DNA of 48,427 bases, from positions 1 through 48,427 of the IMG/VR virus record IMGVR_UViG_3300033067_002291. One strand, 5' to 3'. The translations under genes were made by a program, and so were the position numbers. The notes below the pieces were generated by a model. The model saw only the letters and a list, made by a program, of their open reading frames with translations. It made no database searches and had not been told where the DNA came from. This DNA comes from a virus (taxonomy: Duplodnaviria > Caudoviricetes). The stretch's first letter is position 1; each line of letters starts with the position of its first letter. This document shows positions 3,782 to 48,427 of this stretch, piece by piece.

Positions 3782-4366
3782 TTAATCAATGCTAACTCCT
3801 TCGCTCTGTTGTAATGGGCCACTTCCAGTTTTCTGGATTCCAGCTTGAATGTCAGTAATTAAAGCCTGCAAAACTTTTGCGTCTCTAACGTGACGATTTA
3901 AGCTAGAGGTAACCACCAAGAAGAGTTTGTGCATTTGGGCCTGAGTAATTCTATCTTCTTTAGCCATTCTATGATCGCCACCAACTTTAACCATTTTAGT
4001 TAAGGAATCAATAACAATTTTCCAAGTTTGAATCCAGCCTTGGTGAACAATTGTCTCAGTGGCAATTCCGCGCAACTCAGCAACAATTGCCCTTCGCTTT
4101 GCCTTAAAATTAGGGTCACTAATTATTTGGGGATTGTCTTCGAGAATTTCAATAACTTTCCAAATAGTGTCATTTGGGACAACTGGAAGAGGTTTAGTTA
4201 GAACTTCATCAATTCTAGTTAAGACAGCCTTAGCATTCCTAATGGGAGTAGATAGGTCATAAATTCCCCCATTATCGAAAGGGTCGGCGTCAATTATGCT
4301 AACTACGTTAGCAACGCCATTATCAACAACTAAGTTGTTAGCAACAATTACTTCTTGACCTGCCAT
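3782..4366 (-). CDS. Probable terminase small subunit
   Basis: 194-aa helical protein immediately upstream of terL; positional inference only. Confidence 0.45.
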   Translation of the reverse strand: MAGQEVIVANNLVVDNGVANVVSIIDADPFDNGGIYDLSTPIRNAKAVLTRIDEVLTKPLPVVPNDTIWKVIEILEDNPQIISDPNFKAKRRAIVAELRGIATETIVHQGWIQTWKIVIDSLTKMVKVGGDHRMAKEDRITQAQMHKLFLVVTSSLNRHVRDAKVLQALITDIQAGIQKTGSGPLQQSEGVSID

Positions 4367-4794: not shown

Positions 4795-4849
4795 TGAAAA
4801 ACCCCTAAGGGAAAAACCTCGAAGCTGTTAAAGCAATTCTACCTAGGTA

Positions 4850-4880
4850 GTTATACCCTATTTACCTGGTTAAAACGCCA
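4850..4880 (-). promoter_or_regulatory. Class 2 (putative late) promoter TGGCG-N17-GGGTATAAC
   Basis: Same elements and spacing at 5777-5807 and 7565-7595; points into the terminase operon. Confidence 0.75.
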
Positions 4881-4900: not shown

Positions 4901-5188
4901 ACGGAAAGAGGTTCGACGGAAGAAAAACCGAACGGAAGAAAAACCGCTTTCGTCTGTCGCTTACTTATCACTTACCTTTGGGAGGCTCAGCTAGGTTCAA
5001 AATGGGGCTCGATTTGAACGGAAGAAAACAACGGAAGAAAAAACCAGGGAGGCTTAACAGGAGAAATTTCTCCCGTTGCCCTTTTGGACTTTCTCCTGTC
5101 AACGGAAGAAAGTAAATTTCCTTCTTCTGTCGGTTCTCCAGTGTATCAACGGGAGAAATATCCCCACACACGTAGTGTGGGGGATTTC
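4901..5188. repeat. Iteron-like array of RACRGRAGAAA units in both orientations plus a hairpin (candidate origin or packaging site)
   Basis: Direct units at 4915, 4931, 5017, 5030, 5056, 5101 and 5148; inverted units at 5067, 5090 and 5121 (imperfect); stem CCCCACAC/GTGTGGGG within 5155-5188. Confidence 0.75.
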
Positions 5189-5443
5189 GCCTGTTAGATA
5201 CTCGGAGAGACGAGGTGGTGAGTGAATGAAGGAGAGGGATTAAAGGGAATTGACCCCGGCCTGAATTGAACCTAAAATGGCGCCTTTTCGACAAAACGGG
5301 CCAGTTTTAGGGGGGTTACAGGGGACGTGAATATTTGTCCAGGTGCCTCGGCGGAGGGGCCGCAAATGGCAATTCTAAGCCAAGAAATTGTTTGAATTAA
5401 GAAAACAAACCCTTTTTAAGGGATTAACTTGTTTTTAAGGCAC

Positions 5444-5480
5444 AAAAAAGCCCCTAACCGGAATCAGACGGCAGAGGCTT
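5444..5480 (-). terminator. Intrinsic terminator closing the ncRNA
   Basis: AAGCCUCUGCCG-loop-CGGUUAGGGGCUU running into a U6 tract. Confidence 0.75.
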
Positions 5481-5771
5481 AATTGAAACCCTCAACGTTT
5501 TTAAGCTGTTGGGGGCTTAGTTTTTAGGTTTTCTTTCAGTTGAGCAACTATTCCGAACCCCAACTAATTGAACTAAGAAAGGCTCTGAATTGGAAAGGAG
5601 CTAGCCAACTCTTTTTCTTCCTAGAGAGGGAAATTTAGCAAAAACCCTCTAACCTAAAATTGTTGGGAAGGCGGCTAATAACTTCCTAGTGCCAGACTCA
5701 TTGGGGAACGCAGGGGAACGCAAACGTTCCTAATTCCATCCCTGTTTCGTAGTAAGCGTTCAGTGCCTTCC
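5444..5771 (-). ncRNA. Putative ~330-nt structured non-coding RNA of unknown family
   Basis: Starts 5 nt after a class 2 promoter. 5' GGAAGGC pairs with GCCUUCC (5672-5666), there are further nested stems, it ends in a hairpin plus U6, and it contains no ORF in the track. Confidence 0.7.
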
Positions 5772-5776
5772 ATATA

Positions 5777-5807
5777 GTTATACCCGTTTCGAGGCCCAAA
5801 AACGCCA
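5777..5807 (-). promoter_or_regulatory. Class 2 promoter driving the ncRNA
   Basis: TTGGCG-tttttgggcctcgaaac(17)-GGGTATAAC. Confidence 0.75.
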
Positions 5808-5838: not shown

Positions 5839-6813
5839 CTATGGCCTAATTGCTTGTTCCCAATAAAGGCTGTTTTCGGGGGTTGTGTTGTTTTCAGTTG
5901 CTCCGAATTGTTGATCTCCATAAGCCCAAAACGCACTTCTAACGCCGAATTCTTCACTAACATCTTTACTTGCTTTAAGGAACAATTCCCGGCCTTTAAC
6001 CTTTGAATCACAAGCTACTTCTCCAATCCAAGGAGCACAATAGTTAGTGCTTGCCCAACTGCATAACTTCTGCCGGTGAAGTTTTCGGTTGTTGTCGTCA
6101 ATCTTAGCAAAGTTAAGGTCAGCTACTTCTTGGGGGCTTCTAGGAGTTAATACTTTTTCTAGTGGGTATTCTGTAATTTGTCCACTTGTTAAGGCGTTTG
6201 GGCGGTAGTCGTGAATGTCAATTATTGTTGGCCCATTTGCTTGGAATTGAAAAGTGTTTAGTGGGCCATTTAACCAATCAATGTCAGCTAGTGGGGGAGT
6301 TACTACAACAACTCTTTGGGGGTTAATGTCCCAAACTCCCTCTGCGGCGGCTTGACAGAGAAGTTCCCAAATTCTAGGGGTAACTTCTTTCGAGGCTTCC
6401 CATTGTTGGGTTTTCTTGTTAAATTGTTTTCGGCCACGGGCTTCGTTACAAACGCTTAGGGCAATTAAGGGCTGGAATTCTTTAGGAATTGCCGCAAAGA
6501 AAATGCTTTCTATGTCTCTGTTAATCTTCGGAACGTCCCAAATTTGGTGAAGAGCCTCTGGCATGTCGGGATGGAAGTCTAAAACAACTTTAACGTTGTT
6601 AGTTACAAACTCCCTAACTAAAGTTAAAAACCCACCTGCTAGAAGTGTTCTAGTTGAGTAAGGGAGCCTTACGAGGCCAACTCCTAACTTAATTAAGCGC
6701 TGGGCGTTAGTAACGGTTTGCCAACTTTGGTCAAGGTTAATGTGGAAACCTTTAGTAGTTAAGAAGGCTGTTGCAACTTTTAGTTGTTCTGCTTTTTCGG
6801 TGGTTGTTTTCAT
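5839..6813 (-). CDS. Glycoside hydrolase family 5 (cellulase-like TIM barrel)
   Basis: Ordered GH5 motifs: KGFHI, GVGLVRLP, VVLDFH, acid/base NEA (usually NEP), IHDYRP, nucleophile PWIGEV, AFWAY. Confidence 0.75.
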   Translation of the reverse strand: MKTTTEKAEQLKVATAFLTTKGFHINLDQSWQTVTNAQRLIKLGVGLVRLPYSTRTLLAGGFLTLVREFVTNNVKVVLDFHPDMPEALHQIWDVPKINRDIESIFFAAIPKEFQPLIALSVCNEARGRKQFNKKTQQWEASKEVTPRIWELLCQAAAEGVWDINPQRVVVVTPPLADIDWLNGPLNTFQFQANGPTIIDIHDYRPNALTSGQITEYPLEKVLTPRSPQEVADLNFAKIDDNNRKLHRQKLCSWASTNYCAPWIGEVACDSKVKGRELFLKASKDVSEEFGVRSAFWAYGDQQFGATENNTTPENSLYWEQAIRP

Positions 6814-8006: not shown

Positions 8007-8055
8007 TACCCGGTTTAACAGGTGTTAAGCAAACGTTAGTTAAACCGGGTATAGT
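8007..8055 (+). promoter_or_regulatory. Class 1 promoter copy (8026-8055) embedded in a perfect 13-bp inverted repeat
   Basis: TAAGCAAAC-N12-GGGTATAGT; arms TACCCGGTTTAAC (8007-8019) and GTTAAACCGGGTA (8039-8051). Confidence 0.65.
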
Positions 8056-8071
8056 GGGGGTTGGCGCGTTT

Positions 8072-8881
8072 TTAGGCGGTTGCGTTTCCCTCTTTTGGCG
8101 CGTTTCCACCTGGACGCGGTTCTGTGTTTTTGAGTTTTGGCAGTTCCTCACTTCGACGCGCTTGGAACTTCTGGCACAACTTCATCACCGCTTTACTTTC
8201 CATAATTGAAGTTTCTTTGTCAACCGGGCCGAGGGCGATGAAAAAATCCTCAATCGTTTTAGTGATTAGTTCCTCTAGGTGCTCCGGCAAAGGTTCACGT
8301 GTTCCCTTACTTTCCGCACCGTCTGCAAGTTCTTGCCACTTCTCAAAAGGTAGGGTTAAGGCAAACTCAAGGCAAATAATCGTCCCGTCTCTAAAACTTT
8401 CCAGAGTCTCACCTTTTTGAGTTTTGAATCCGTCAATTAGTTCACCGTGAAAGTGTCTCAGCCAGCGGTTAATAGTTCGGGCACTTGAATTGGGAGTAGC
8501 CTCAAGGTTCAGTTCAACCTTTTGGGCACTTGCAACATCACTAAACCATGTTTTAAGGCTATCGGCGGTACAATCCAATTGATCAATAAAGGGCGCAATT
8601 AACATTCCCTGAATAACCGGGGGCAAACTTGGCAACTGCAAAACAGGTTCAGGAATTGCCTCAAGCTGAGCCAAAACGTGACTAACTTTTGCCTTACAAA
8701 TTGCGTAAACCCAGTTTAAGTAAGTTTCAGATGAAGCACTTGGAGCTTTTTGGGTTAGAAGTGCTTTGGGCAAGTCAAAAGCGTAGTCCTTCCAGGTTAA
8801 ACCGTTTGCCCAGAAATCAGTTGCGTTAATTGAATTAGTGTCGCTAATTGGCGTTTGTTGAATAGTTATTTCTTTAGACAT
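8072..8881 (-). CDS. Hypothetical protein
   Basis: 269-aa ORF downstream of a sigma70-like promoter. Confidence 0.75.
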   Translation of the reverse strand: MSKEITIQQTPISDTNSINATDFWANGLTWKDYAFDLPKALLTQKAPSASSETYLNWVYAICKAKVSHVLAQLEAIPEPVLQLPSLPPVIQGMLIAPFIDQLDCTADSLKTWFSDVASAQKVELNLEATPNSSARTINRWLRHFHGELIDGFKTQKGETLESFRDGTIICLEFALTLPFEKWQELADGAESKGTREPLPEHLEELITKTIEDFFIALGPVDKETSIMESKAVMKLCQKFQARRSEELPKLKNTEPRPGGNAPKEGNATA

Positions 8882-9610: not shown

Positions 9611-10024
9611 ATGATTGAATTAAACACTACCCCCAAAACAAAACCAACTAACAAATTGGAACTCTTAAGCCAAACAGAAGGAATTCTAATTGGAACTCTT
9701 CGAGAACAAAGAATTACCTCCCAACAACTTGCTAGCCTGTGGGACATTTCCCACAGAACCGTAGAAAGCCACCTTTTAGCAATTTACAAAAAACTAAAGG
9801 TGAACAACTTGGTTAGCGCAATTAATGCAGTTACCCTCAAACCCGGAGATCAAGTTTTCACCAATCGAGGAACAAACAAACAAACTCCAGCAACTATTGC
9901 AGAAACACAAACTCGTTACAAAGTTGTTTTCGACGACGGTTCCCACAATTGGATAACAATTAACCAATTAACTCCGATGGACGCAAACCTCCAAGCAACC
10001 TACCCAAAACAGGAAACAGTTTAA
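9611..10024 (+). CDS. LuxR-type HTH regulator with a C-terminal SH3/Tudor-like domain
   Basis: LSQTE...SQQLASLWDISHRTVESHLLAIYKKLKV matches the LuxR HTH pattern; the C-terminus is LKPGDQV...RYKVVFDDGSHNWI. Confidence 0.8.
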   Translation: MIELNTTPKTKPTNKLELLSQTEGILIGTLREQRITSQQLASLWDISHRTVESHLLAIYKKLKVNNLVSAINAVTLKPGDQVFTNRGTNKQTPATIAETQTRYKVVFDDGSHNWITINQLTPMDANLQATYPKQETV

Positions 10025-19195: not shown

Positions 19196-21019
19196 ATGGT
19201 TCTTCCATATCTTAACCTAATAAAAGAGTTCCTGGTTTCCTTTAACGAGGAAACTGGGGAAGGGGAATTGCCTAAAAAGCTAACAGTTAACCTTGCCACC
19301 GGAAAACTAAGCAACAATTCCACCGCAATTAGTTATTGCATTTCTCAGGGAATGAGCTTACTTGAGGTAAGGTTTAGGTTAGGCCGTGGGGAAAGCCCTA
19401 AAGAACTTTTACGGGATTATTCACTGGCTAAACCTTTTGGAGAATTCTGTGAGGAATGGTGTTTGTTACGGGGAATTCCTTTCTCAGTTGGAAAAGCCGC
19501 TAAGCTGAGAGAAGCCCTAATTGACGGACTTCCAACAATTCTCCTACCCTATTTCGACATTCATGGCAATTTAATAGACGTTGTTTACCGCAACCCAACT
19601 ACCGGAAAGAAACTAAGAAACGCAAGTAATGTTGCCAGCCTTTTTAACCCCTATGAGAAACGGGGGAGTTTTTCAACAGTTGTAATAATTAAAGGAGAGA
19701 GCGACGTTCTCAGGTTAAAGACGGCCCTTGAGGAAAACAACGTAACTGACGTAGGGGTTTATGGAATTCCGGACAACTCTATTCAAAGGGAGTTTATTAG
19801 AGAACTTCAAGCCTTTACTAGAGTTGTAGTTGTTCCGGCAACTGATAATCATGGAGCCCTTTTAGTAGCTAACGTTACTAAGTTAGCTCCTGAGTGGGAA
19901 ATAGTTGAACTTCCTTGGCAACCTGGTCAAAGAGGTAAAGACTTCTCCGATTGGATAACTTTCCCAGAAAACGATTTCTCTGCTTTTCTTCAACAACTAC
20001 GCCCTTCCCACCCCCCAAGAGAAATTCTCGACGACAACCAATTTGCAAGTGAAACAACTAACCCATTGGAGGCGAAAACCTGGATTGTTTCTAACCTTAT
20101 TGCTAAAGGCGACATTGCTATTTTAGGTGGAGCCCAAAAGGCTAGGAAAACTTGGCTAACAATGAACCTAATTAAGGCAATTGTTAACGGCGAGCCTTTG
20201 TGGGGAATTCCTAACCTAATTGGGAACCCTGCTACCCGAATTCTTTTCATTGAAGAAGAAGGAAACATTCACGACTTCAAAGAGAGACGGCGAGTTGTTC
20301 TTGGCAACGTTAACGCTGAGAATGTTTTCTGGCTCCATGACTCAGGGCTTAAATTTGATAACGATGCAGACATTGAATGGCTTCTAAGAAAAGTTAAGGA
20401 ACTAAGAATTGACTTAATTATTGGCGACCCAATGCAAAACTTAAGAAACGTTGTTAATGAAAATGCTTCAGGAGACGTTCACCACTTTTGGGAAAACGTT
20501 AAAAGACTTAAACGTGAAACTGGAATTGCCTTATTCTTTCTTCACCACTTTAACCAAGGTGGAGAAGCTGAGAAAGGTTGGGCGGCTCTTAGAGGAACAA
20601 CCCGTGATGCTGGACAAGCTGATGTTGGCCTATTCACCCAAAAAATTGAAAAACCTTACCACTTTAACAAACTCTGCATTGATGGAAGAGAAGTCCATTT
20701 AGAATATCCAAATGGGCGTTTCTTCCAATTAAAGTTTAATGCAAGTGTTAGAGACAATAAGTTAATTAGAGCGGAGTTCAAATGCGTTATGGAGGGAACT
20801 ACTAAAGCTACGCCAGAAACCCTTCTAAATGAATTCATTAACTCAGGCAGAGAGACTTGGCTACTTGAAGAAGCCGCCACCCACTTTGACAAAGACCCTA
20901 AAACAATTAAGAACTGGATTGAAAAGTTGCCACAATTAACAACCACCCCACCTGCCCCAGGTTGCCAAGTTAGAATTATTAAAGCAGGAGAGAAGCCACA
21001 ATTAAAGATAAGCGAATGA
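19196..21019 (+). CDS. Primase-helicase (degenerate TOPRIM + RepA/AAA_25 helicase + C-terminal HTH)
   Basis: KGESD and GKDFSDW (TOPRIM-like), WIVSNLI, GAQKARKT (Walker A), LIIGDP (Walker B), LHHFNQ, LRGT. Confidence 0.8.
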   Translation: MVLPYLNLIKEFLVSFNEETGEGELPKKLTVNLATGKLSNNSTAISYCISQGMSLLEVRFRLGRGESPKELLRDYSLAKPFGEFCEEWCLLRGIPFSVGKAAKLREALIDGLPTILLPYFDIHGNLIDVVYRNPTTGKKLRNASNVASLFNPYEKRGSFSTVVIIKGESDVLRLKTALEENNVTDVGVYGIPDNSIQREFIRELQAFTRVVVVPATDNHGALLVANVTKLAPEWEIVELPWQPGQRGKDFSDWITFPENDFSAFLQQLRPSHPPREILDDNQFASETTNPLEAKTWIVSNLIAKGDIAILGGAQKARKTWLTMNLIKAIVNGEPLWGIPNLIGNPATRILFIEEEGNIHDFKERRRVVLGNVNAENVFWLHDSGLKFDNDADIEWLLRKVKELRIDLIIGDPMQNLRNVVNENASGDVHHFWENVKRLKRETGIALFFLHHFNQGGEAEKGWAALRGTTRDAGQADVGLFTQKIEKPYHFNKLCIDGREVHLEYPNGRFFQLKFNASVRDNKLIRAEFKCVMEGTTKATPETLLNEFINSGRETWLLEEAATHFDKDPKTIKNWIEKLPQLTTTPPAPGCQVRIIKAGEKPQLKISE

Positions 21020-21651
21020 AAGAACTAGAAAACAAAACCCCAAGCGTTCGTGCTAAAAAGGTAATTAACCGGCCAATGGCCCCAAACGTTGAAAAATTTG
21101 AAACTTTCCTTCATAGCCAAATGAGCAACTTAGTTAGTTGGGGAAGTTTCAAAGGGCTACCAAAAGAACAAGCAGAGGACGTTGCTCAAAACGCAGTTAT
21201 TCGCTTCCTGCGCCATTACGATCCAGAGAAAACCAAACCAAAAACTTTTCTCTACTTCTGCATGAACTTGGAGATTTACGAACACAAAAGAAAACTTCGA
21301 AGCAAAGAAAGCGGTGGGCGGCCTACTAGCGTTCCAACAACTCACCTTGACCCAGAAACTTTAACTAAGTTAAGTGATGCCAGAGGGAACGTAAACCTTC
21401 CAACTGTTTTTGATAACTTCTCAACTGAAAACACTAAAAGCCTTTTAACTAAATTAGGCCAAGTTCTAACTCAAAGAGAACTTCTAGTCTTCTGCTTAAA
21501 GGCTCTGGGATATAGCGAAAGTTCAATTATTAAATTGATTCCTGGAAATTTGAGTAGAACAGTTATTTACAAAATTTGGAGAGAGGCAAAATTCAAAGTT
21601 GCTAACAGTTTGCCCCTCTTTGAAGAAGAGCTTTTGAACTTTGTTGCTTAA
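21016..21651 (+). CDS. Sigma-70/ECF-like protein 2
   Basis: AEDVAQNAVIRFLRHYDPEKTKPKTFLY (region 2) and LTQRELLVFCLKALGYS (region 4). Confidence 0.78.
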   Translation: MKELENKTPSVRAKKVINRPMAPNVEKFETFLHSQMSNLVSWGSFKGLPKEQAEDVAQNAVIRFLRHYDPEKTKPKTFLYFCMNLEIYEHKRKLRSKESGGRPTSVPTTHLDPETLTKLSDARGNVNLPTVFDNFSTENTKSLLTKLGQVLTQRELLVFCLKALGYSESSIIKLIPGNLSRTVIYKIWREAKFKVANSLPLFEEELLNFVA

Positions 21652-22233: not shown

Positions 22234-23199
22234 ATGCTAACAATCCACAAACTTCATCTTGGCGACATTGGAACTTTCCAACGTTGCAAACGAAAATTCT
22301 TCTGGGAGAAAATTGCCAGAATTAAGCCAATTAACTCCGAGAAACCTAAGTATCTTAACGACGGTACTTACGGCCACTTGCGACTAGAAGAATTCCACAC
22401 AGGCAACAGCACTTTAGAACAACGCCAAAAGTTCATTGAAGCCACCGCCCCACTTGACGGCTATTCTTCTATTAACAAGTTGTGTGACCTCTACGAGGAA
22501 CGCCACCAAAGTGACCTTAAACAGTTTCAAGTTCTAAGTTGTGAAGATTCAATTAGGTTGCCAATTTCCAATCAACTAGTTGCTTTCACAGTTGACCTTA
22601 AAGTTGTGAACACTGATTCTCACAAGTTGGAAATCATTGACCATAAGTTCTACAAAGCTGGAACTAAAATTGATGATGGCTACTTGTTCTGCATGAATCA
22701 ACCTTGGAGCTACCCAAAACTTCTTAGCATTGCTGGACAAGAAATTGCCCGTTTCCATTTGAACGTAATTTTCAAACGAACTCTAAAGTTCCCTGAACCG
22801 CTTAAAAGTGGAAAGCTCTCAACAGCAAAAACAAGCCTTGCAAACGTAACCGAAAAAGATTACCGTTCAGCCCTACAAGCAACTGGACAAGAAATAACCC
22901 CTGAAATTGCAGAAGTTCTTAACCAACTTCACGAAACTGACAGCCAAAGTTTTCTAAGGTTTACAGTTGGTAGGGACAAAGGCCGAGAAGAATGGGCTTA
23001 CAAAGAACTAACAGACAATATTGAAGAAATTGAAGCTAGAGGAACTGAAATTGAAAACTTTCCGTTAAACTTTGGCTATGGTTGTGAGAAGTGCGCTTTC
23101 TTTCTTTTGTGTAGTTCCCATATTAGGGGAGAGAGTGACCAACGATTAAAACAAATTAAAGGATTTGAATTTGAAGAAAAAGACAATGATGAAAGATAA
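22234..23199 (+). CDS. PD-(D/E)xK exonuclease (Cas4/RecB-like, four Cys)
   Basis: CKRKFFW, GTYGHLRLE, VDL...IIDHK, CEKCAFFLLC. Confidence 0.85.
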   Translation: MLTIHKLHLGDIGTFQRCKRKFFWEKIARIKPINSEKPKYLNDGTYGHLRLEEFHTGNSTLEQRQKFIEATAPLDGYSSINKLCDLYEERHQSDLKQFQVLSCEDSIRLPISNQLVAFTVDLKVVNTDSHKLEIIDHKFYKAGTKIDDGYLFCMNQPWSYPKLLSIAGQEIARFHLNVIFKRTLKFPEPLKSGKLSTAKTSLANVTEKDYRSALQATGQEITPEIAEVLNQLHETDSQSFLRFTVGRDKGREEWAYKELTDNIEEIEARGTEIENFPLNFGYGCEKCAFFLLCSSHIRGESDQRLKQIKGFEFEEKDNDER

Positions 23200-23220
23200 A
23201 TTAATTAGGTGGTTTGCGTA

Positions 23221-23997
23221 ATGGCAGTTAAAATGATTATTTACGGGGAACCTGGTAGTGGGAAAACTACTTGGCTAGGTAATTCAAAGAACGGAATTCT
23301 AACAGTTCCCAACGCCTGTCCGGTTCTTTACCTTGACTTTGATGACAAGATTAAGCCAATTAGAAGCACCGTTAACGACATTCCTATTAGTGAAATTGGT
23401 TCATGGGAAAGCTTTCAGCCAGACAAAATTAACCGGCTAAGTTTCCAAGTAACTGACCGAACTCTCGACGCGGTTTACAAACAGCTTAACCGTTTGTGTG
23501 GAGAGGCTGGGGCAATAACAGAGGACAACTTCCCAGCAAAAACAATTGTTGTTGATAGCTCAACCCATCTAAGCGAGTTGCTAAGCCGCTACACGCTAAA
23601 ATACCACAAAGTGAATCGAGTTAGCCCAGAAGTTTTGAGCCAACAAGACTACGGAATGGTTGCTAACTTGCAGAGCAGAATTCTCTCTAACTTAATTAGT
23701 TCAGGCCACAATGTAATTTTACTTTGTCATGTTCGCCAAGACCATTACAAAGACGGTTCCTTAAAGAGTGAAGAGCCTTTGTTCATTGGTAAGATGACAA
23801 GGCAAGTAATTCCAGGGAAAGTTGATTATGGAGGCTACCTCTACATTAACAAAAGTGGCAATCGACAAATTGATTGGACAGAAAAGAGCAACGCAGTTGT
23901 TCAACGATGGGTTAATCAAAGCATTGAAATTGGGGTTGACAAAGACCTTCCCACCGATGCAGACTTTAGCAAACTAGCCTACCTTTTCGACAACTAA
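23221..23997 (+). CDS. AAA_24 / Sak4-like ATPase
   Basis: IYGEPGSGKTT, TIVVDS, QQDYG, VILLCH; located between the exonuclease and the SSB-like gene. Confidence 0.82.
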   Translation: MAVKMIIYGEPGSGKTTWLGNSKNGILTVPNACPVLYLDFDDKIKPIRSTVNDIPISEIGSWESFQPDKINRLSFQVTDRTLDAVYKQLNRLCGEAGAITEDNFPAKTIVVDSSTHLSELLSRYTLKYHKVNRVSPEVLSQQDYGMVANLQSRILSNLISSGHNVILLCHVRQDHYKDGSLKSEEPLFIGKMTRQVIPGKVDYGGYLYINKSGNRQIDWTEKSNAVVQRWVNQSIEIGVDKDLPTDADFSKLAYLFDN

Positions 23998-24001
23998 CAA
24001 C

Positions 24002-24223
24002 ATGGAAACCGTTCAAACAATCCTTAACGTTCTTTTTGTAGTTCATGTAATTCTATCAACTGCCTCTCTTCAACGGCTCAACAGAATTACAACTACAACA
24101 ATCAAAACAGTTACCCGTCTATCCATTCAGCAAATGAACAAAGGGGCAGTAGATAAACTGATTCAAACCCTTCTGTCAGAAGAACCACCTACCCACCCCA
24201 CTCAGGATGAAACTTCCCACTAA
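24002..24223 (+). CDS. Small protein with a hydrophobic N-terminus; its stop codon lies inside the ribozyme
   Basis: 73-aa ORF; TAA 24221-24223 falls in hammerhead loop III. Confidence 0.55.
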   Translation: METVQTILNVLFVVHVILSTASLQRLNRITTTTIKTVTRLSIQQMNKGAVDKLIQTLLSEEPPTHPTQDETSH

Positions 24224-24259
24224 GGGAAGTCCACTAATTAAGTTAGTGCTGATGAGTCC
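24205..24259 (+). ncRNA. Type II hammerhead ribozyme
   Basis: GGAU-GAAA-CUUCCC-ACUAA-GGGAAG-UC/-CACUAAU-UAA-GUUAGUG-CUGAUGA-GUCC has all core nucleotides and three stems; predicted cleavage after C24231. Confidence 0.88.
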
Positions 24260-24323
24260 AATTGAATTAGCCAACAAGTTTGGCCTTTTCAGTTACTTTA
24301 TTTGCTTATAGGAAAAAACGATT

Positions 24324-24791
24324 ATGTCAAAAGACCAAAACCAAAACGTCCCGTTCAGTCTCTCTTTCAATGATGTTGTTGAGCAGGAAGCTAATAACAA
24401 CCCAAGTGAATCTACTGTCTACACAAGTGGAGTTAAAATTACCTCAGCAGTTGCTCAACGTTCTAAGCCTAAGGATGGCGCGGCTCAAGGAACTGCAATG
24501 ATTAAACTTACACTTGCCCATGAAGATTGGGGTTCACAAGTTAAGTATGTTTGGGCAATGTGTGAAGGTGGTGGAGCAGATATGGCTACCGGAATTAAGC
24601 GACTTGTTAAGGCCACGAAGGCCAATGTTGTCGTTAAGGATTTCGATAGTGGTGAGGAGGTTGTTACTTCTTTGATTGGTAAGACAATCCAAATTAAGGA
24701 AGAACTCCGAGACAACAAAGACCCTAACGGGAACACTGAGTTCGACGAGAAAGTTATGCGAATCACTGCAATTGGTGCAGATTCTGACTAA
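24324..24791 (+). CDS. Putative single-stranded DNA-binding protein (DUF669-like)
   Basis: GTAMIKLTL, LIGKTIQIK, acidic tail; standard position after exonuclease and Sak4-like genes. Confidence 0.6.
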   Translation: MSKDQNQNVPFSLSFNDVVEQEANNNPSESTVYTSGVKITSAVAQRSKPKDGAAQGTAMIKLTLAHEDWGSQVKYVWAMCEGGGADMATGIKRLVKATKANVVVKDFDSGEEVVTSLIGKTIQIKEELRDNKDPNGNTEFDEKVMRITAIGADSD

Positions 24792-24819
24792 CTAACAGTT
24801 AACCCTTAACCAAACAACC

Positions 24820-24841
24820 GGAGCCCTTTAATTAGGGCTCC
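24820..24841 (+). other. GC-rich stem-loop without a U-tract, 3' of the SSB-like gene
   Basis: GGAGCCCT-ttaatt-AGGGCTCC followed by A/C-rich sequence. Confidence 0.7.
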
Positions 24842-24864
24842 AACAAAAGCCCAAAAAGTAATTC

Positions 24865-25155
24865 ATGTCAAAACAAGCCCCCACTCCAATTTCTCCTGAT
24901 GCCGTTCCAATTTACATTTACGCCAACGACCTAACTCCCTTAAAGGTTAGCAACCACAGCCAAAGCTATTATAGCGTAGTTTTGCGTAGCCGTCCAGAAT
25001 TAAAAGTTGGGCTAACCGCTCAGTTTAAGTGTGGAGCTAAATTTGAAATTGTAGAGATTCACACTGATAACAAACAATGGAGCGAAGGTTTCCACAACTA
25101 CATTTTCTCCCCAATTCCAGAAGAAGAATTAACCAATGAAAAACAAAACAATTAA
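24865..25155 (+). CDS. Hypothetical protein
   Basis: 96-aa ORF. Confidence 0.6.
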   Translation: MSKQAPTPISPDAVPIYIYANDLTPLKVSNHSQSYYSVVLRSRPELKVGLTAQFKCGAKFEIVEIHTDNKQWSEGFHNYIFSPIPEEELTNEKQNN

Positions 25156-25342
25156 GATTAAATTTCAAGTTCCTGAAAAAGGCGACACTCTTTCTTTTAC
25201 AGTTTACCCAATTGAAGGCTACAGAGAAATTTGGTATGATGTTAGTGGAAATATTCAAACTCTTAATTCTTATGCGTTTGGTATAAAAGAACTACTTAAC
25301 ATCCCTACCTCAGTTGAAATTGAAGAGCCAACAGTAAAATGA
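25136..25342 (+). CDS. Hypothetical protein
   Basis: 68-aa ORF with ATGA coupling to the polymerase gene. Confidence 0.55.
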   Translation: MKNKTIKIKFQVPEKGDTLSFTVYPIEGYREIWYDVSGNIQTLNSYAFGIKELLNIPTSVEIEEPTVK

Positions 25343-27690
25343 TTTCCCTCAAAGTTCCACCAGCTTATCAAGTTTGTGATTGTTTTAGTTGCCCGTTAAA
25401 CTATCAACGAAGTGCAATTCCTGCAATGTTCGTTAATCCCCCTGAGCTAAGCCCCAACGTGGAAACTGTTTTCATTTTTTCCGCTCCTGATGAGGCTAGC
25501 TCAGTTGGTGGAACAGATAAGGGCGTTAAGTTAATCAATTCACTTGCCCAACAAATGGGCGCTGACCCAAACAGTTTTGTTTGTTTGCCTTTAGTTTCTT
25601 GCTCCACAACGGAAATTCCCTTCGAGGCTACAATTCACTGTAACACTTGGCTCAGGTTAGCCATTGACTCGCTTAAACCTTCTAGGGTAGTTCTAATGGG
25701 GGCCTTAGCTCAAACCGTCTTCCAGACCCGCTCAGAGGCTGAAAACACGTGGTTTTTGAGCCCAAAAAATTTCAACTTTGAATGTAACGTAATTAATTGC
25801 ATTGAACCTAAAGAAGTTCTTAGAACCCCAAAAAGAATGTCTAACTTTATAAGAGTTATTCAAAAGGCTCTCTTTGGTTCAACTGAATGGATTCCACCTC
25901 TTCCAGAACAACTAAGCCAAAGTCCAAAAGAAACCGCTGAATTCATTAGAAACATTTCAAAACAAAGCGCAACTAACCATTGCAGTTTGGATTTGGAGTC
26001 CACAGAAGGAACGGACACTTATTCCAACTTCTGCCTTAACTTAGGCTTCTACTACCCTGAAAGGGAAAGAGTTCCTTTTGTAGTTCCCGGCCTTCACTTA
26101 TTCCATTCCGAGGTTCGTGAAGCCTTTAACAATTGCCAAGCAACTTTTGTAGGGAGTAACTTTCAGAACTTTGACGCTAAGTTTGTTTTCCACCTTCATG
26201 GCATTGTAATCCCTAACCTAGTTGACCTTGGGCACATTGATTTCTGCATTGATGAAAGTGAAACAGGTGAAGATGGAATTGTTAGAAAAGGTTTAGGCTT
26301 TTTAGCTCCTTTGTTAATTAATGCCCCTGACTACAAAGCAGAAATGGCTCCATACATTAAACAAATGTTCACTGCGCCAATTGAACTAGCTAACAAATAC
26401 GTTGGCTGGGATGCTTATTGTTCTTGGGGTTGTTATGAAGTTTTAATGGCTCAACTTGATGAACGGGCTACAAACCTTTTAACCAAAACAATTATTCCTA
26501 ACTGTAAAGTTCTCCGAGAAATGAGTAACGATGGGGTTCTAATTGACCGCCCATACCTGACAGAACTAAGTAAAACTTTTGACGTTGAACTGCAAACTTT
26601 AGCGGACAACTTTGGTTGGAACAACGCAAGAAAAACCGGCGATTTTAACCCTGGAAGTTGGCAACAAATGCAAAAGTTTCTTTATGGCAAAATGGGAATA
26701 ACTCCCCTAGACGCTAAGAAAGGCACTGGAGAACCAGTTCTGCTACAAATTCTCGAAAAAGGCAACTTAGCTCCCGAACAAGTTCAGGCAATTAACAACC
26801 TCTTAGAACTCCGGGAAATCTCCAAACTAAAAGGAACTTACACTGACGGCCTCCGCTCTTTGCTAACTCCTGAAGACTTCCTCCACACTGACTACCTAGG
26901 AACTGGAACTAACACCGGAAGGCCATCAAGCAAAAACCCTAACCTGCAAAACATTCCTACTCGAACTGAATTAGGCCGAGCTATTAAACGGGCTTTCATA
27001 GTTCCCAGCGGCTTTAGGTATTTCTTTAATGCTGACTATTCCCAGTTGGAAGTTAGGCTAATGGCTATTGCTAGTGGCGACCCTAAGCTAATTGAGCTAA
27101 TTAATTCAGGTGAAGACATTCACCGCTATGCGGCAAGTATCTGGTTCGGTGTACCCCAAAATGAAGTTACCAAAGAAATGCGAGCTTTTCAGAAAACTGC
27201 TAACTTTGCAATTCTTTACGGCTTAACTGAGAAAGGGGCGGGCTATCAACTAGGCTTGTCACAAAGTGAAGGGGCTAGAATTGTTAGAACTTTCAAAAAA
27301 GAAACTTTTTCTGGCCTAGGAGCTTGGGTTGACGAACAACAACAATTCGCCCTTAAACACAACTATGTTCCTTACCCCCTGAATTCATTCCGCGTTAGGC
27401 ATTTTCCTTTAATAACTAACCACAACTTAGAAGACGTTCGCAAACATTGCGTTAACAGCCCAATTCAAGGCAGAGGTAGTGACTTCTGTTTAGCAGGAAT
27501 TCAACGGGTTAGAGCGGCAGGGCTTTCGGCCCGTTTAGTTGTTCACGATTCCGTTAGCGGTTATTGCAATTCAGAAGACGAGGCCCGTGAAGTTGTTAAG
27601 CTAATGGAAGTCAGGGATTTTGCAGTTCCGTTAGTTCTTGATTGTTCAATTGGGGGCAATTGGCGCGACCAAACTGAGGTAAAACTTTGA
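25339..27690 (+). CDS. polA: Family A DNA polymerase with an N-terminal UDG family 4-like domain and a 3'-5' exonuclease
   Basis: Exo I DLES, Exo II NFQNFD, Exo III YVGWD; TNTGRPSSKNPNLQNIP; motif A ADYSQLEVR, motif B KTANFAILYG, motif C VHDS; N-terminal CFSCPL...KPSRVVLMG. Confidence 0.95.
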   Translation: MISLKVPPAYQVCDCFSCPLNYQRSAIPAMFVNPPELSPNVETVFIFSAPDEASSVGGTDKGVKLINSLAQQMGADPNSFVCLPLVSCSTTEIPFEATIHCNTWLRLAIDSLKPSRVVLMGALAQTVFQTRSEAENTWFLSPKNFNFECNVINCIEPKEVLRTPKRMSNFIRVIQKALFGSTEWIPPLPEQLSQSPKETAEFIRNISKQSATNHCSLDLESTEGTDTYSNFCLNLGFYYPERERVPFVVPGLHLFHSEVREAFNNCQATFVGSNFQNFDAKFVFHLHGIVIPNLVDLGHIDFCIDESETGEDGIVRKGLGFLAPLLINAPDYKAEMAPYIKQMFTAPIELANKYVGWDAYCSWGCYEVLMAQLDERATNLLTKTIIPNCKVLREMSNDGVLIDRPYLTELSKTFDVELQTLADNFGWNNARKTGDFNPGSWQQMQKFLYGKMGITPLDAKKGTGEPVLLQILEKGNLAPEQVQAINNLLELREISKLKGTYTDGLRSLLTPEDFLHTDYLGTGTNTGRPSSKNPNLQNIPTRTELGRAIKRAFIVPSGFRYFFNADYSQLEVRLMAIASGDPKLIELINSGEDIHRYAASIWFGVPQNEVTKEMRAFQKTANFAILYGLTEKGAGYQLGLSQSEGARIVRTFKKETFSGLGAWVDEQQQFALKHNYVPYPLNSFRVRHFPLITNHNLEDVRKHCVNSPIQGRGSDFCLAGIQRVRAAGLSARLVVHDSVSGYCNSEDEAREVVKLMEVRDFAVPLVLDCSIGGNWRDQTEVKL

Positions 27691-47959: not shown

Positions 47960-48354
47960 TAGTTAAACACTCCACAAATTGCCTTAAACAAGGAATCTTT
48001 TAGCTTTTGACTTTTTGGCAGTTCATCATAAGGAACAAAACAAGGGTGAGTTTTTGCCTCAACGTCCTTAGTTTCTCCATAAGTCCAACCATCAACCTCT
48101 TTAACTTTAAGCCAACTTTCATGACTTGCACTTGCAGGGGCATTTGGGTTTTGAAAGTTAAACAGAACTCCTTGAATTGCTGATTTCTTTTGCCATTCTG
48201 GAGCAAATTCCCAATCAACTTGGGAGTTGTCACCAAGGTTCTCACAATAAGCTTTATTAGCTTGGTGAGTAATTCGGGCCACTTTTTCTACGTGGGTTCG
48301 CCTTTCAAAGGCTTCTTGTGTTTCTGTTGTGTTGTTGTTTGTTTCGTTGTCCAT
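47959..48354 (-). CDS. RyR-domain phage protein, allele B
   Basis: HESWLKVKEVDGWTYGETKDVEAKTHPCFVPYDELPKSQKLKD matches the ryanodine-receptor repeat pattern H..W...GW.YG..D...K.HP..VPY..LP. Confidence 0.8.
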   Translation of the reverse strand: MDNETNNNTTETQEAFERRTHVEKVARITHQANKAYCENLGDNSQVDWEFAPEWQKKSAIQGVLFNFQNPNAPASASHESWLKVKEVDGWTYGETKDVEAKTHPCFVPYDELPKSQKLKDSLFKAICGVFN

Positions 48355-48427
48355 TATTTTTCCTCAACCCTTGGTGTTCCCGTGGGTTCTTTAACTGTGG
48401 GGTTTCCCCTGTCTTTTGCTTTCGCTA
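48044..48427. repeat. Right copy of the imperfect terminal repeat, including the portal 3' end
   Basis: Aligns to 1-376; the portal C-terminus reads EPTGTPRVEEK here versus EPTGKPRVEEK on the left. Confidence 0.9.

Follow-up and report, generated by a model that had tools for sequence, protein, structure and literature searches.

A Candidate Stand-Alone Two-Domain RNA Upstream of the Terminase Operon of a Tailed Phage

The Locus and Its Genomic Setting

The RNA unit considered here occupies positions 5444–5771, on the minus strand, of a window that is the whole record of the virus IMGVR_UViG_3300033067_002291 (Duplodnaviria; Caudoviricetes; 48,427 bases), and lies between a gene resembling GH5 glycoside hydrolases (6813–5839) and about 650 non-coding bases, beyond which the terminase operon begins; the genome is compact, and long non-coding gaps such as the one that holds the unit are few. 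Since the first ~385 bases (1–385) recur at 48,044–48,427, the record probably represents a full genome of 48,043 bp; CheckV assigns it a completeness of 65%, and it is classed as linear. The genes recognised in the window include those of a tailed phage (portal, large terminase, capsid, DNA polymerase, primase-helicase (19196-21019), ThyX, and a sigma-factor-like protein). As to the host, the sole organism-named match among the best 120 relatives of ThyX comes from Fimbriimonas sp. (42%), which may be a weak hint of an Armatimonadota host; the named terminase relatives, about 30% identical, come from phyla other than Armatimonadota.

The GH5-like gene (5839–6813, minus strand), directly upstream of the RNA, matches Pfam Cellulase at E 5.2e-05, just under the curated cut-off, which is passed by its 71% relative P0122; in a search of 5.8 billion proteins, its product had five near-identical cluster members and one other relative at 71%. 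On the other side, the late operon comprises, all on the minus strand, ORF 4794-4366, ORF 4366-3782, the large terminase, and the portal gene. The large terminase (ORF 3753-1921) was recognised by phrog_2 of PHROGs (E 4.9e-15) and also matches both Pfam terminase domains, weakly and below their cut-offs. Between the RNA unit and this operon, at 4914–5200 (plus strand), a repeat search found six direct repeats of the AACGGAAGAAA type, together with inverted degenerate copies and a palindrome (5162–5182); this array is a probable replication origin or packaging site. Elsewhere in the window, the gene for a RyR-domain protein (48354-47959, minus strand) comes right after the portal gene, on the other side of the genome join; no explanation was reached for a 142-aa ORF, and a 194-aa ORF has two clear relatives and no family.

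Promoter-Like Motif, Coding Content, and 3′ End

The promoter-like motif of the unit (5776–5807, minus strand) has the form TGGCG-N17-GGGTATAACT, with TGGCG at 5807–5803, GGGTATAACT at 5785–5776, and a T-rich stretch upstream; G5771 is the fifth base after it. Written as TGGCG-N17-GGGTATAA, the motif occurs three times in the genome (7595, 5807, and 4880, all on the minus strand), ahead of a 199-aa gene, of the RNA unit, and of the terminase operon, respectively, and is absent from 100 out of 100 dinucleotide shuffles of the genome; the last of these copies, at 4849–4880, precedes ORF 4794-4366 and the genes that follow it. In all three copies the fifth base beyond the final T of the motif is a purine, which makes G5771 (or G5770) the likely start of the RNA. 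The initial annotation, according to which the unit starts 5 nt after a promoter of the type used by the packaging operon, is borne out by the motif on both points; its term “class 2” was a label of its own, and two promoter-like classes do exist in the genome, the second, AAGCA-N14-16-GGGTA, having five matches, three of which precede replication-arm genes. Since the first class of motif sits before the terminase operon, it is presumed to be late and to be read by the phage sigma factor. A generic promoter and terminator scan listed neither the promoter nor the terminator of the unit.

As separate observations, a LuxR-type helix-turn-helix protein (9611-10024, plus strand) and a sigma-70 region-2 protein (21016-21651, plus strand) are the candidate readers of the two promoter classes, and a second-class promoter-like motif at 8027-8060 (plus strand) points into the 3′ end of ORF 8881-8072 (minus strand), where it may drive an antisense RNA or a 98-aa frame (8124-8420, plus strand).

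The reading frames of at least 20 aa that overlap the unit are only 20–46 aa long, and the lone one with an ATG (32 aa) begins at 5773, two bases ahead of the predicted start; a small protein encoded by the unit was therefore rejected, no frame being credible, as had been annotated. Likewise in agreement with that annotation, ARAGORN found no tRNA or tmRNA gene in the whole window. The unit ends, as also proposed at the outset, in an intrinsic-terminator-like hairpin followed by U6 (5444–5480, minus strand; −15.0 kcal/mol, z −3.1), whose arms are identical to those of the terminator-like hairpin at 6860-6835 and which is predicted with a probability of 0.997, versus 0.003 for the alternative pairing. 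It is preceded by hairpin 3 (5486–5518, minus strand), a weaker look-alike of the terminators of the phage, and a third small terminator-like hairpin (5410–5422, minus strand) lies downstream of the unit; the next gene has its own promoter ~600 nt beyond the terminator. A conformational switch at the 3′ end was rejected, the alternative 3′ fold being 3.6 kcal/mol worse.

Predicted Fold

The pair probabilities given here were taken from the ViennaRNA ensemble, and the fold is a prediction from its energy model, drawn through complementary segments that are present in the sequence. Domain 1 (5666–5771, minus strand) is predicted to open with a 7-bp helix that starts from the first base (GGAAGGC/GCCUUCC, 0.98–1.0) and to continue into a long irregular stem and a multiloop carrying the hairpin GGAACG-UUUG-CGUUCC, whose GGAACG/CGUUCC stem has a pair probability of 0.70–0.76. 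Pairing from the first base is a layout typical of stable RNAs; a perfect partner for the opening helix was found in 164 of 5000 shuffles. The interior of the domain is ambiguous, since it holds three near-copies each of two complementary 8-mers, which permit several alternative registers. Taken alone, domain 1 has a z of −1.58, with no strand preference (sense −1.58 versus antisense −1.8).

After a predicted single-stranded linker, CAACAA (5660–5665, minus strand), domain 2 (5522–5659, minus strand) is modelled as a four-way junction with no unpaired junction bases, closed by a 9-bp helix (UUUUAGGUU/AACCUAAAA, 0.70–1.0) and composed of arms a (5650-5625), b (5624-5573), and c (5572-5531), all on the minus strand. 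Of the pairings proposed by the initial annotation, both closing helices, three inner stems (the GGAACG/CGUUCC hairpin already mentioned, AGAGGG/CCCUCU at 0.85–1.0, and AGUUGGG/CUCAACU at 0.97–1.0), and the last two hairpins, including GCCCCCAAC/GUUGAGGGU (0.92–0.98, with one C-A mismatch), were recovered; GAACG/CGUUC (0.001), CAGG/CCUG (0.004), and GAGUU/AGCUC (0.001) were not, all of them staying below 0.005, and the partner of GAGUUGG is CCAAUUC (0.99) rather than AGCUC. The nested fold that had been drawn for domain 1, when forced, reaches −26.1 versus −31.9, that is, 5.8 kcal/mol worse in the energy model, which may be mistaken for this domain, and was rejected as the main state. Arm c could form a 7-bp pseudoknot with the terminator loop (−8.2 kcal/mol), but this pairing was at chance level and was rejected as well.

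Folding energy alone is a weak signal, and much of the whole-unit z belongs to the terminator: the unit as a whole has a z of −2.47 (0 of 100 shuffles; −2.53 and 1 of 60 in a repeat run), and without the terminator the value is −1.67 for nt 1–290 and −1.21 for nt 1–251. Domain 2 reaches −2.12, and a z of −2.1 or lower was seen in 68 of the 686 140-nt windows into which the genome was divided (~10%, with 12 shuffles each). Within the energy model, the junction shape of domain 2 is the best signal, above folding energy. A gap-free four-way junction was obtained in 1 of 1000 shuffles (5 of 1000 when up to two unpaired bases were allowed), in a test whose boundaries were picked after the fold had been seen; with this taken into account, the probability of a chance origin is estimated at one or two in a hundred. 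The joint probability of the junction is 0.45–0.48, and, among the 7 gap-free junctions present in 4792 overlapping windows across the genome, it is the sole one that persists in a 100-base flanking context (0.48 versus at most 0.004). The observation that domain 2 folds in the sense strand only (z −2.12 versus −0.3 for the antisense), together with its 5 G-U among 47 pairs, favours an RNA over a DNA cruciform.

Known RNA Families, Homologue Searches, and Relatives

When the 4227 models of Rfam 15 were run, the check that the initial annotation had suggested, no match reached the gathering threshold in the whole window and none was found at E ≤ 10 in 5430–5790, the six weak matches in the window all lying outside 5444–5771. 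Ten core motifs, drawn from ribozymes, RNase P, SRP, T-box, and group II introns, matched only short common words. A hammerhead or hairpin ribozyme was rejected, the hammerhead 5′ core and the hairpin loop-B words being absent and Rfam giving no match, so that the catalytic role once suggested finds no support among known ribozyme families. Sponges of the CsrB/RsmZ type carry many GGA words in loops; such a sponge was also rejected, as the unit has 7 GGA versus 5.7 expected, most of them within predicted stems. Elsewhere in the window, words like the 5′ half of the hammerhead core occur in a short intergenic gap at 24245-24258 (plus strand), where the 3′ half is absent and Rfam gives no match.

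The collection of homologues envisaged by the initial annotation gave none, whether by blastn, by DNA pattern, or by covariance model. With the whole unit and each domain as queries, blastn returned only chance matches of 22–24 bases (E 4–5) from 50,697 phage records and no RNA homologue from 72,556 plasmids. Three DNA-pattern scans of IMG/VR yielded, respectively, 44 loci, none of them resembling the RNA downstream; a single locus, where a hairpin separates two reading frames and the flanks are unrelated; and 105 loci, which are repeat arrays and of which 79 were scored by the model (best E 0.01, in this pre-selected set) and all 105 were checked by blastn and nhmmer. Scans led by the terminase, capsid, portal, and ThyX proteins found no locus with an RNA homologue, and two scans of genome contigs found no prophage relative. 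Single-sequence covariance models of each domain matched the window alone in 97 and 98 chosen sources (1.27 Mb), gave nothing under E 0.46 when run unfiltered on 5 loci, and had no match in 50 whole virus records; search models built from one sequence are insensitive, and these negatives are to be read as no close copy within reach.

Judged from its proteins, the phage is isolated: its closest terminase relatives share 52% and 47% identity, and the capsid protein has no match among the 50,697 GenBank phage records. The near-identical cluster members and the 71% relative of the GH5-like protein show that nearer kin do exist. The closest relative fetched (L082; 47% in the terminase) starts just before the terminase gene, without the DNA upstream. 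G002, a distant relative with a complete genome of 48,987 bp, 16 genes in common, and the same head module, carries at the matching position small ORFs and no such RNA; the three small ORFs neighbouring the RNA show no detectable homology to the same-position ORFs of the relative L002.

Three further features were seen in L002, G002, and L213. A 335-nt leader, found in L002 (1712-2046, plus strand) and also in G002, follows a promoter-like site, folds well (z −3.3, 0 of 100 shuffles), and has hammerhead-like words and no Rfam match; it is a separate candidate RNA. A 180-nt intergenic stretch in L213 (7998-8180, plus strand) and in G002 (~46,000) forms two neat domains and more hairpins, with a z of just −0.69 when flanks are included, no Rfam match, and no likeness to the RNA of the window. 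A tandem of about ten paralogous genes of 90–105 aa with the common motif CP(I/V)ALA is found at 11-1428 of L002 and 22,900-27,000 of G002.

Proposed Role and Alternative Explanations

A real folded transcript probably exists at this locus, and the RNA is probably an uncatalogued phage ncRNA known from one lineage. The initial annotation had described an uncatalogued stand-alone RNA co-regulated with the packaging genes, a description that gains from the empty Rfam search and the shared promoter class and to which the search for homologues added nothing. In the reading tentatively preferred here, a stand-alone RNA gene would be transcribed late, from a promoter of the type used by the terminase operon. 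The product, of 328 nt, would have a core of ~250 nt folded into two compact domains; as an accessory RNA it would serve in trans as a decoy or scaffold for a protein, which it would bind by virtue of its shape, and its two or three 3′ hairpins would also keep transcription from entering the repeat array. Few long unpaired stretches are predicted in the RNA, so that protein binding would fit better than antisense pairing; an accessory rather than core role is suggested because G002, with its 16 shared genes, has small ORFs in place of the RNA. The decoy role, already proposed as a speculation, is the most plausible of those remaining, solely through elimination of the others.

The foremost alternative, although rather unlikely, is that the unit is an attenuated late leader, in which promoter, short RNA, and terminator form a cassette that feeds the late operon by antitermination, the fold acting in cis. 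The unit and the late operon share a strand and a promoter class, the unit being ~650 nt upstream; the GH5-like gene, which has no promoter of either class and sits after a terminator-like hairpin, suggests that read-through of such hairpins occurs; and hairpin 3 can pair with the 3′ arm of the terminator. However, a separate promoter at 4880 serves the late operon, the alternative 3′ fold described above is unfavourable (probability 0.003), and no antiterminator was named among 62 ORFs compared with PHROGs, a comparison in which most ORFs matched nothing.

A somewhat smaller chance is given to the absence of any functional RNA, the unit being either a promoter followed by stacked terminators and fortuitous stems or no more than the 3′-terminal part of the GH5-like mRNA. 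The weak z without the terminator (−1.2 to −1.7), the high genome background, and the empty homologue searches agree with this explanation, as does the scan, which listed no terminator-like hairpin between the GH5-like gene and the unit; what speaks for a functional RNA is that a single non-coding gap combines an exact copy of the promoter with pairing that begins at the first base and with a gap-free junction that is stable.

It is doubtful that the RNA controls the neighbouring array, either by pairing with the repeats or by titrating their binding protein, through GGAAGAAAAA, the 3′ ten bases of the array repeat, which recur in arm b (5612–5621, minus strand), inverted relative to the array. 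The unit is transcribed towards the array; a 9-mer of the repeat has five copies in the genome, four in the array and the only other one in arm b of the RNA; some 10-mer of the repeat occurs in 75 of 5000 shuffles (p ~0.015, in a post hoc test); and the domain-2 closing word AACCTAAAA recurs at 5269, between the RNA and the array. On the other hand, the arm b copy is without the 5′ AAC, is half paired, and is not among the top 30 matches of the full repeat matrix; the 8-, 9-, and 10-mers shared with the whole region are not clearly above chance (67, 137, and 325 of 1000 shuffles); and arrays of other repeats with a palindrome precede the terminase module in L002/G002 (L002 about 4040-4330) and in L206 (about 580-960), no such RNA having been found in G002 or L206. 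The repeat of G002 also recurs just after its primase-helicase gene.

Two observations concern the arrays themselves. The DNA upstream of the terminase module holds a TTGAACCT-like word in the window (4993-5000 and 5266-5273, that is, twice and inverted), in L002 (4187-4195 and 4320-4328), and in L206 (~886-893); the word is a candidate for a conserved packaging signal. Many IMG/VR records (L295-L399) contain arrays of the GGAAC/GTTCC word in both orientations, often around a palindrome, which resemble origin repeats.

Equally doubtful is a riboregulator that would mask Shine-Dalgarno sites by base pairing, using either the tip of arm b, which is rich in pyrimidines, or UCCCC words in domain 1. 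An exposed, conserved loop of pyrimidine-rich sequence is the mark of sRNAs with a C-rich anti-Shine-Dalgarno loop. The tip of arm b holds the anti-Shine-Dalgarno-like CUCCUUUC (5593–5600, minus strand), which resembles the 16S tail; this 8-mer was matched in 113 of 5000 shuffles, and UCCC occurs 4 times versus 1.9 expected. Against this, the 7-mer was present in 572 of 5000 shuffles (11%), CUCCUUUC is just partly unpaired, and the complementary 8-mer is nowhere else in the genome. A host-wide masking that would spare the phage genes was rejected, as these genes, the late ones included, themselves use Shine-Dalgarno sites (19 of 57 versus a background of 6.5%).

A more elaborate proposal, which must be regarded as quite improbable, is that the RNA, made late, encoded beside the array, and bearing the repeat core in an arm of its four-way junction, guides or decoys the repeat-binding protein and thereby switches the genome from replication to packaging; were this true, genome processing would involve an RNA in a phage whose terminase is canonical. 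A pRNA-like part of the packaging motor, as the initial annotation had speculated, is highly improbable: the unit is close to the terminase and portal genes and shares their promoter class, and the loop of arm a is complementary to that of arm b over 4 bases (GCUA/UAGC), but the phage has a large terminase (ORF 3753-1921), the loop–loop energy is at chance (506 of 1000 shuffles equal it), and G002, with the same head module, is without the RNA. That the four-way junction is the basis of a new class of ribozyme or ligand-binding RNA is just as improbable; the hairpin ribozyme and metal riboswitches offer examples of tight four-way junctions whose neighbouring arms carry internal loops, but Rfam gave no match at E ≤ 10, the ten core motifs matched only common short words, and no gene lies directly downstream to be regulated.

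If the unit is transcribed, a sizeable two-domain RNA unlike any Rfam family would join the short list of stand-alone phage ncRNAs; its importance would be greater if it acted on the neighbouring origin or packaging array or blocked a host defence protein. The sharp predicted ends and the compact domain 2 should allow the RNA to be made in vitro for probing, pull-down, and structural work.

Comparison with Known Systems

One analogue in layout is the pR′-6S RNA-tR′ unit of phage lambda, which consists of a promoter, a short non-coding RNA, and a terminator upstream of the late genes, and which, like the unit described here, is a same-strand cassette. Here, by contrast, the late operon is preceded by a second promoter of its own, with a repeat array in the intervening DNA, and the predicted RNA is the longer and more extensively folded of the two. 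In a lambda-type leader the promoter of the cassette is the sole one of the late operon and read-through of the terminator depends on a factor; in the phage studied here a second promoter of the same class lies at 4880.

The prohead RNA of phi29 resembles the candidate in having separate domains and a multiway junction (PMC5066667), and the candidate gene lies beside packaging genes. The same source describes the pRNA as unique to phi29-like motors, which work without a large terminase, the latter being the equivalent of pRNA plus ATPase, and as built on a three-way junction with interlocking loops (PMC5066667); here, by contrast, a four-way junction is predicted, loop pairing is at chance level, and the terminase is canonical.

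A search of titles and abstract openings, covering few subscription papers, found no paper describing the RNA at 5444–5771. Among viral intergenic RNAs, the candidate structured RNAs predicted from IMG/VR sequences, 14 of which lie upstream of a putative large terminase gene (PMC10690425), are comparable in origin; they measure 29–151 nt and were required to have at least three distinct copies with covariation, whereas the RNA here has 328 nt. One 16-base motif was absent from three supplement files of that work, and one domain of the RNA may yet match a candidate described there.

The ROOL and GOLLD RNAs (PMC12286853) are like the candidate in being multi-domain structured RNAs of phages or prophages with no known function. 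They differ from it in size (the ROOL studied has 659 nt and GOLLD often exceeds 800 nt, versus 328 nt), in being often near tRNA islands, the window having no tRNA gene, and in their richness in tertiary contacts (PMC12286853); the candidate matches no Rfam family. A further group comprises the late, abundant ncRNAs of about 120–210 nt of phage PAK_P3 (PMC10914365), although the blastn comparison of the candidate with the phage records revealed no sequence likeness. Like the candidate, for which late expression is presumed from its promoter class, ncRNA1 and ncRNA2 of that phage are intergenic, phage-encoded, within 100–300 nt, late, and of no known function; they are described there as lacking a start site of their own and as arising by processing of 3′ UTRs (PMC10914365), whereas the RNA described here is predicted to be transcribed from its own promoter.
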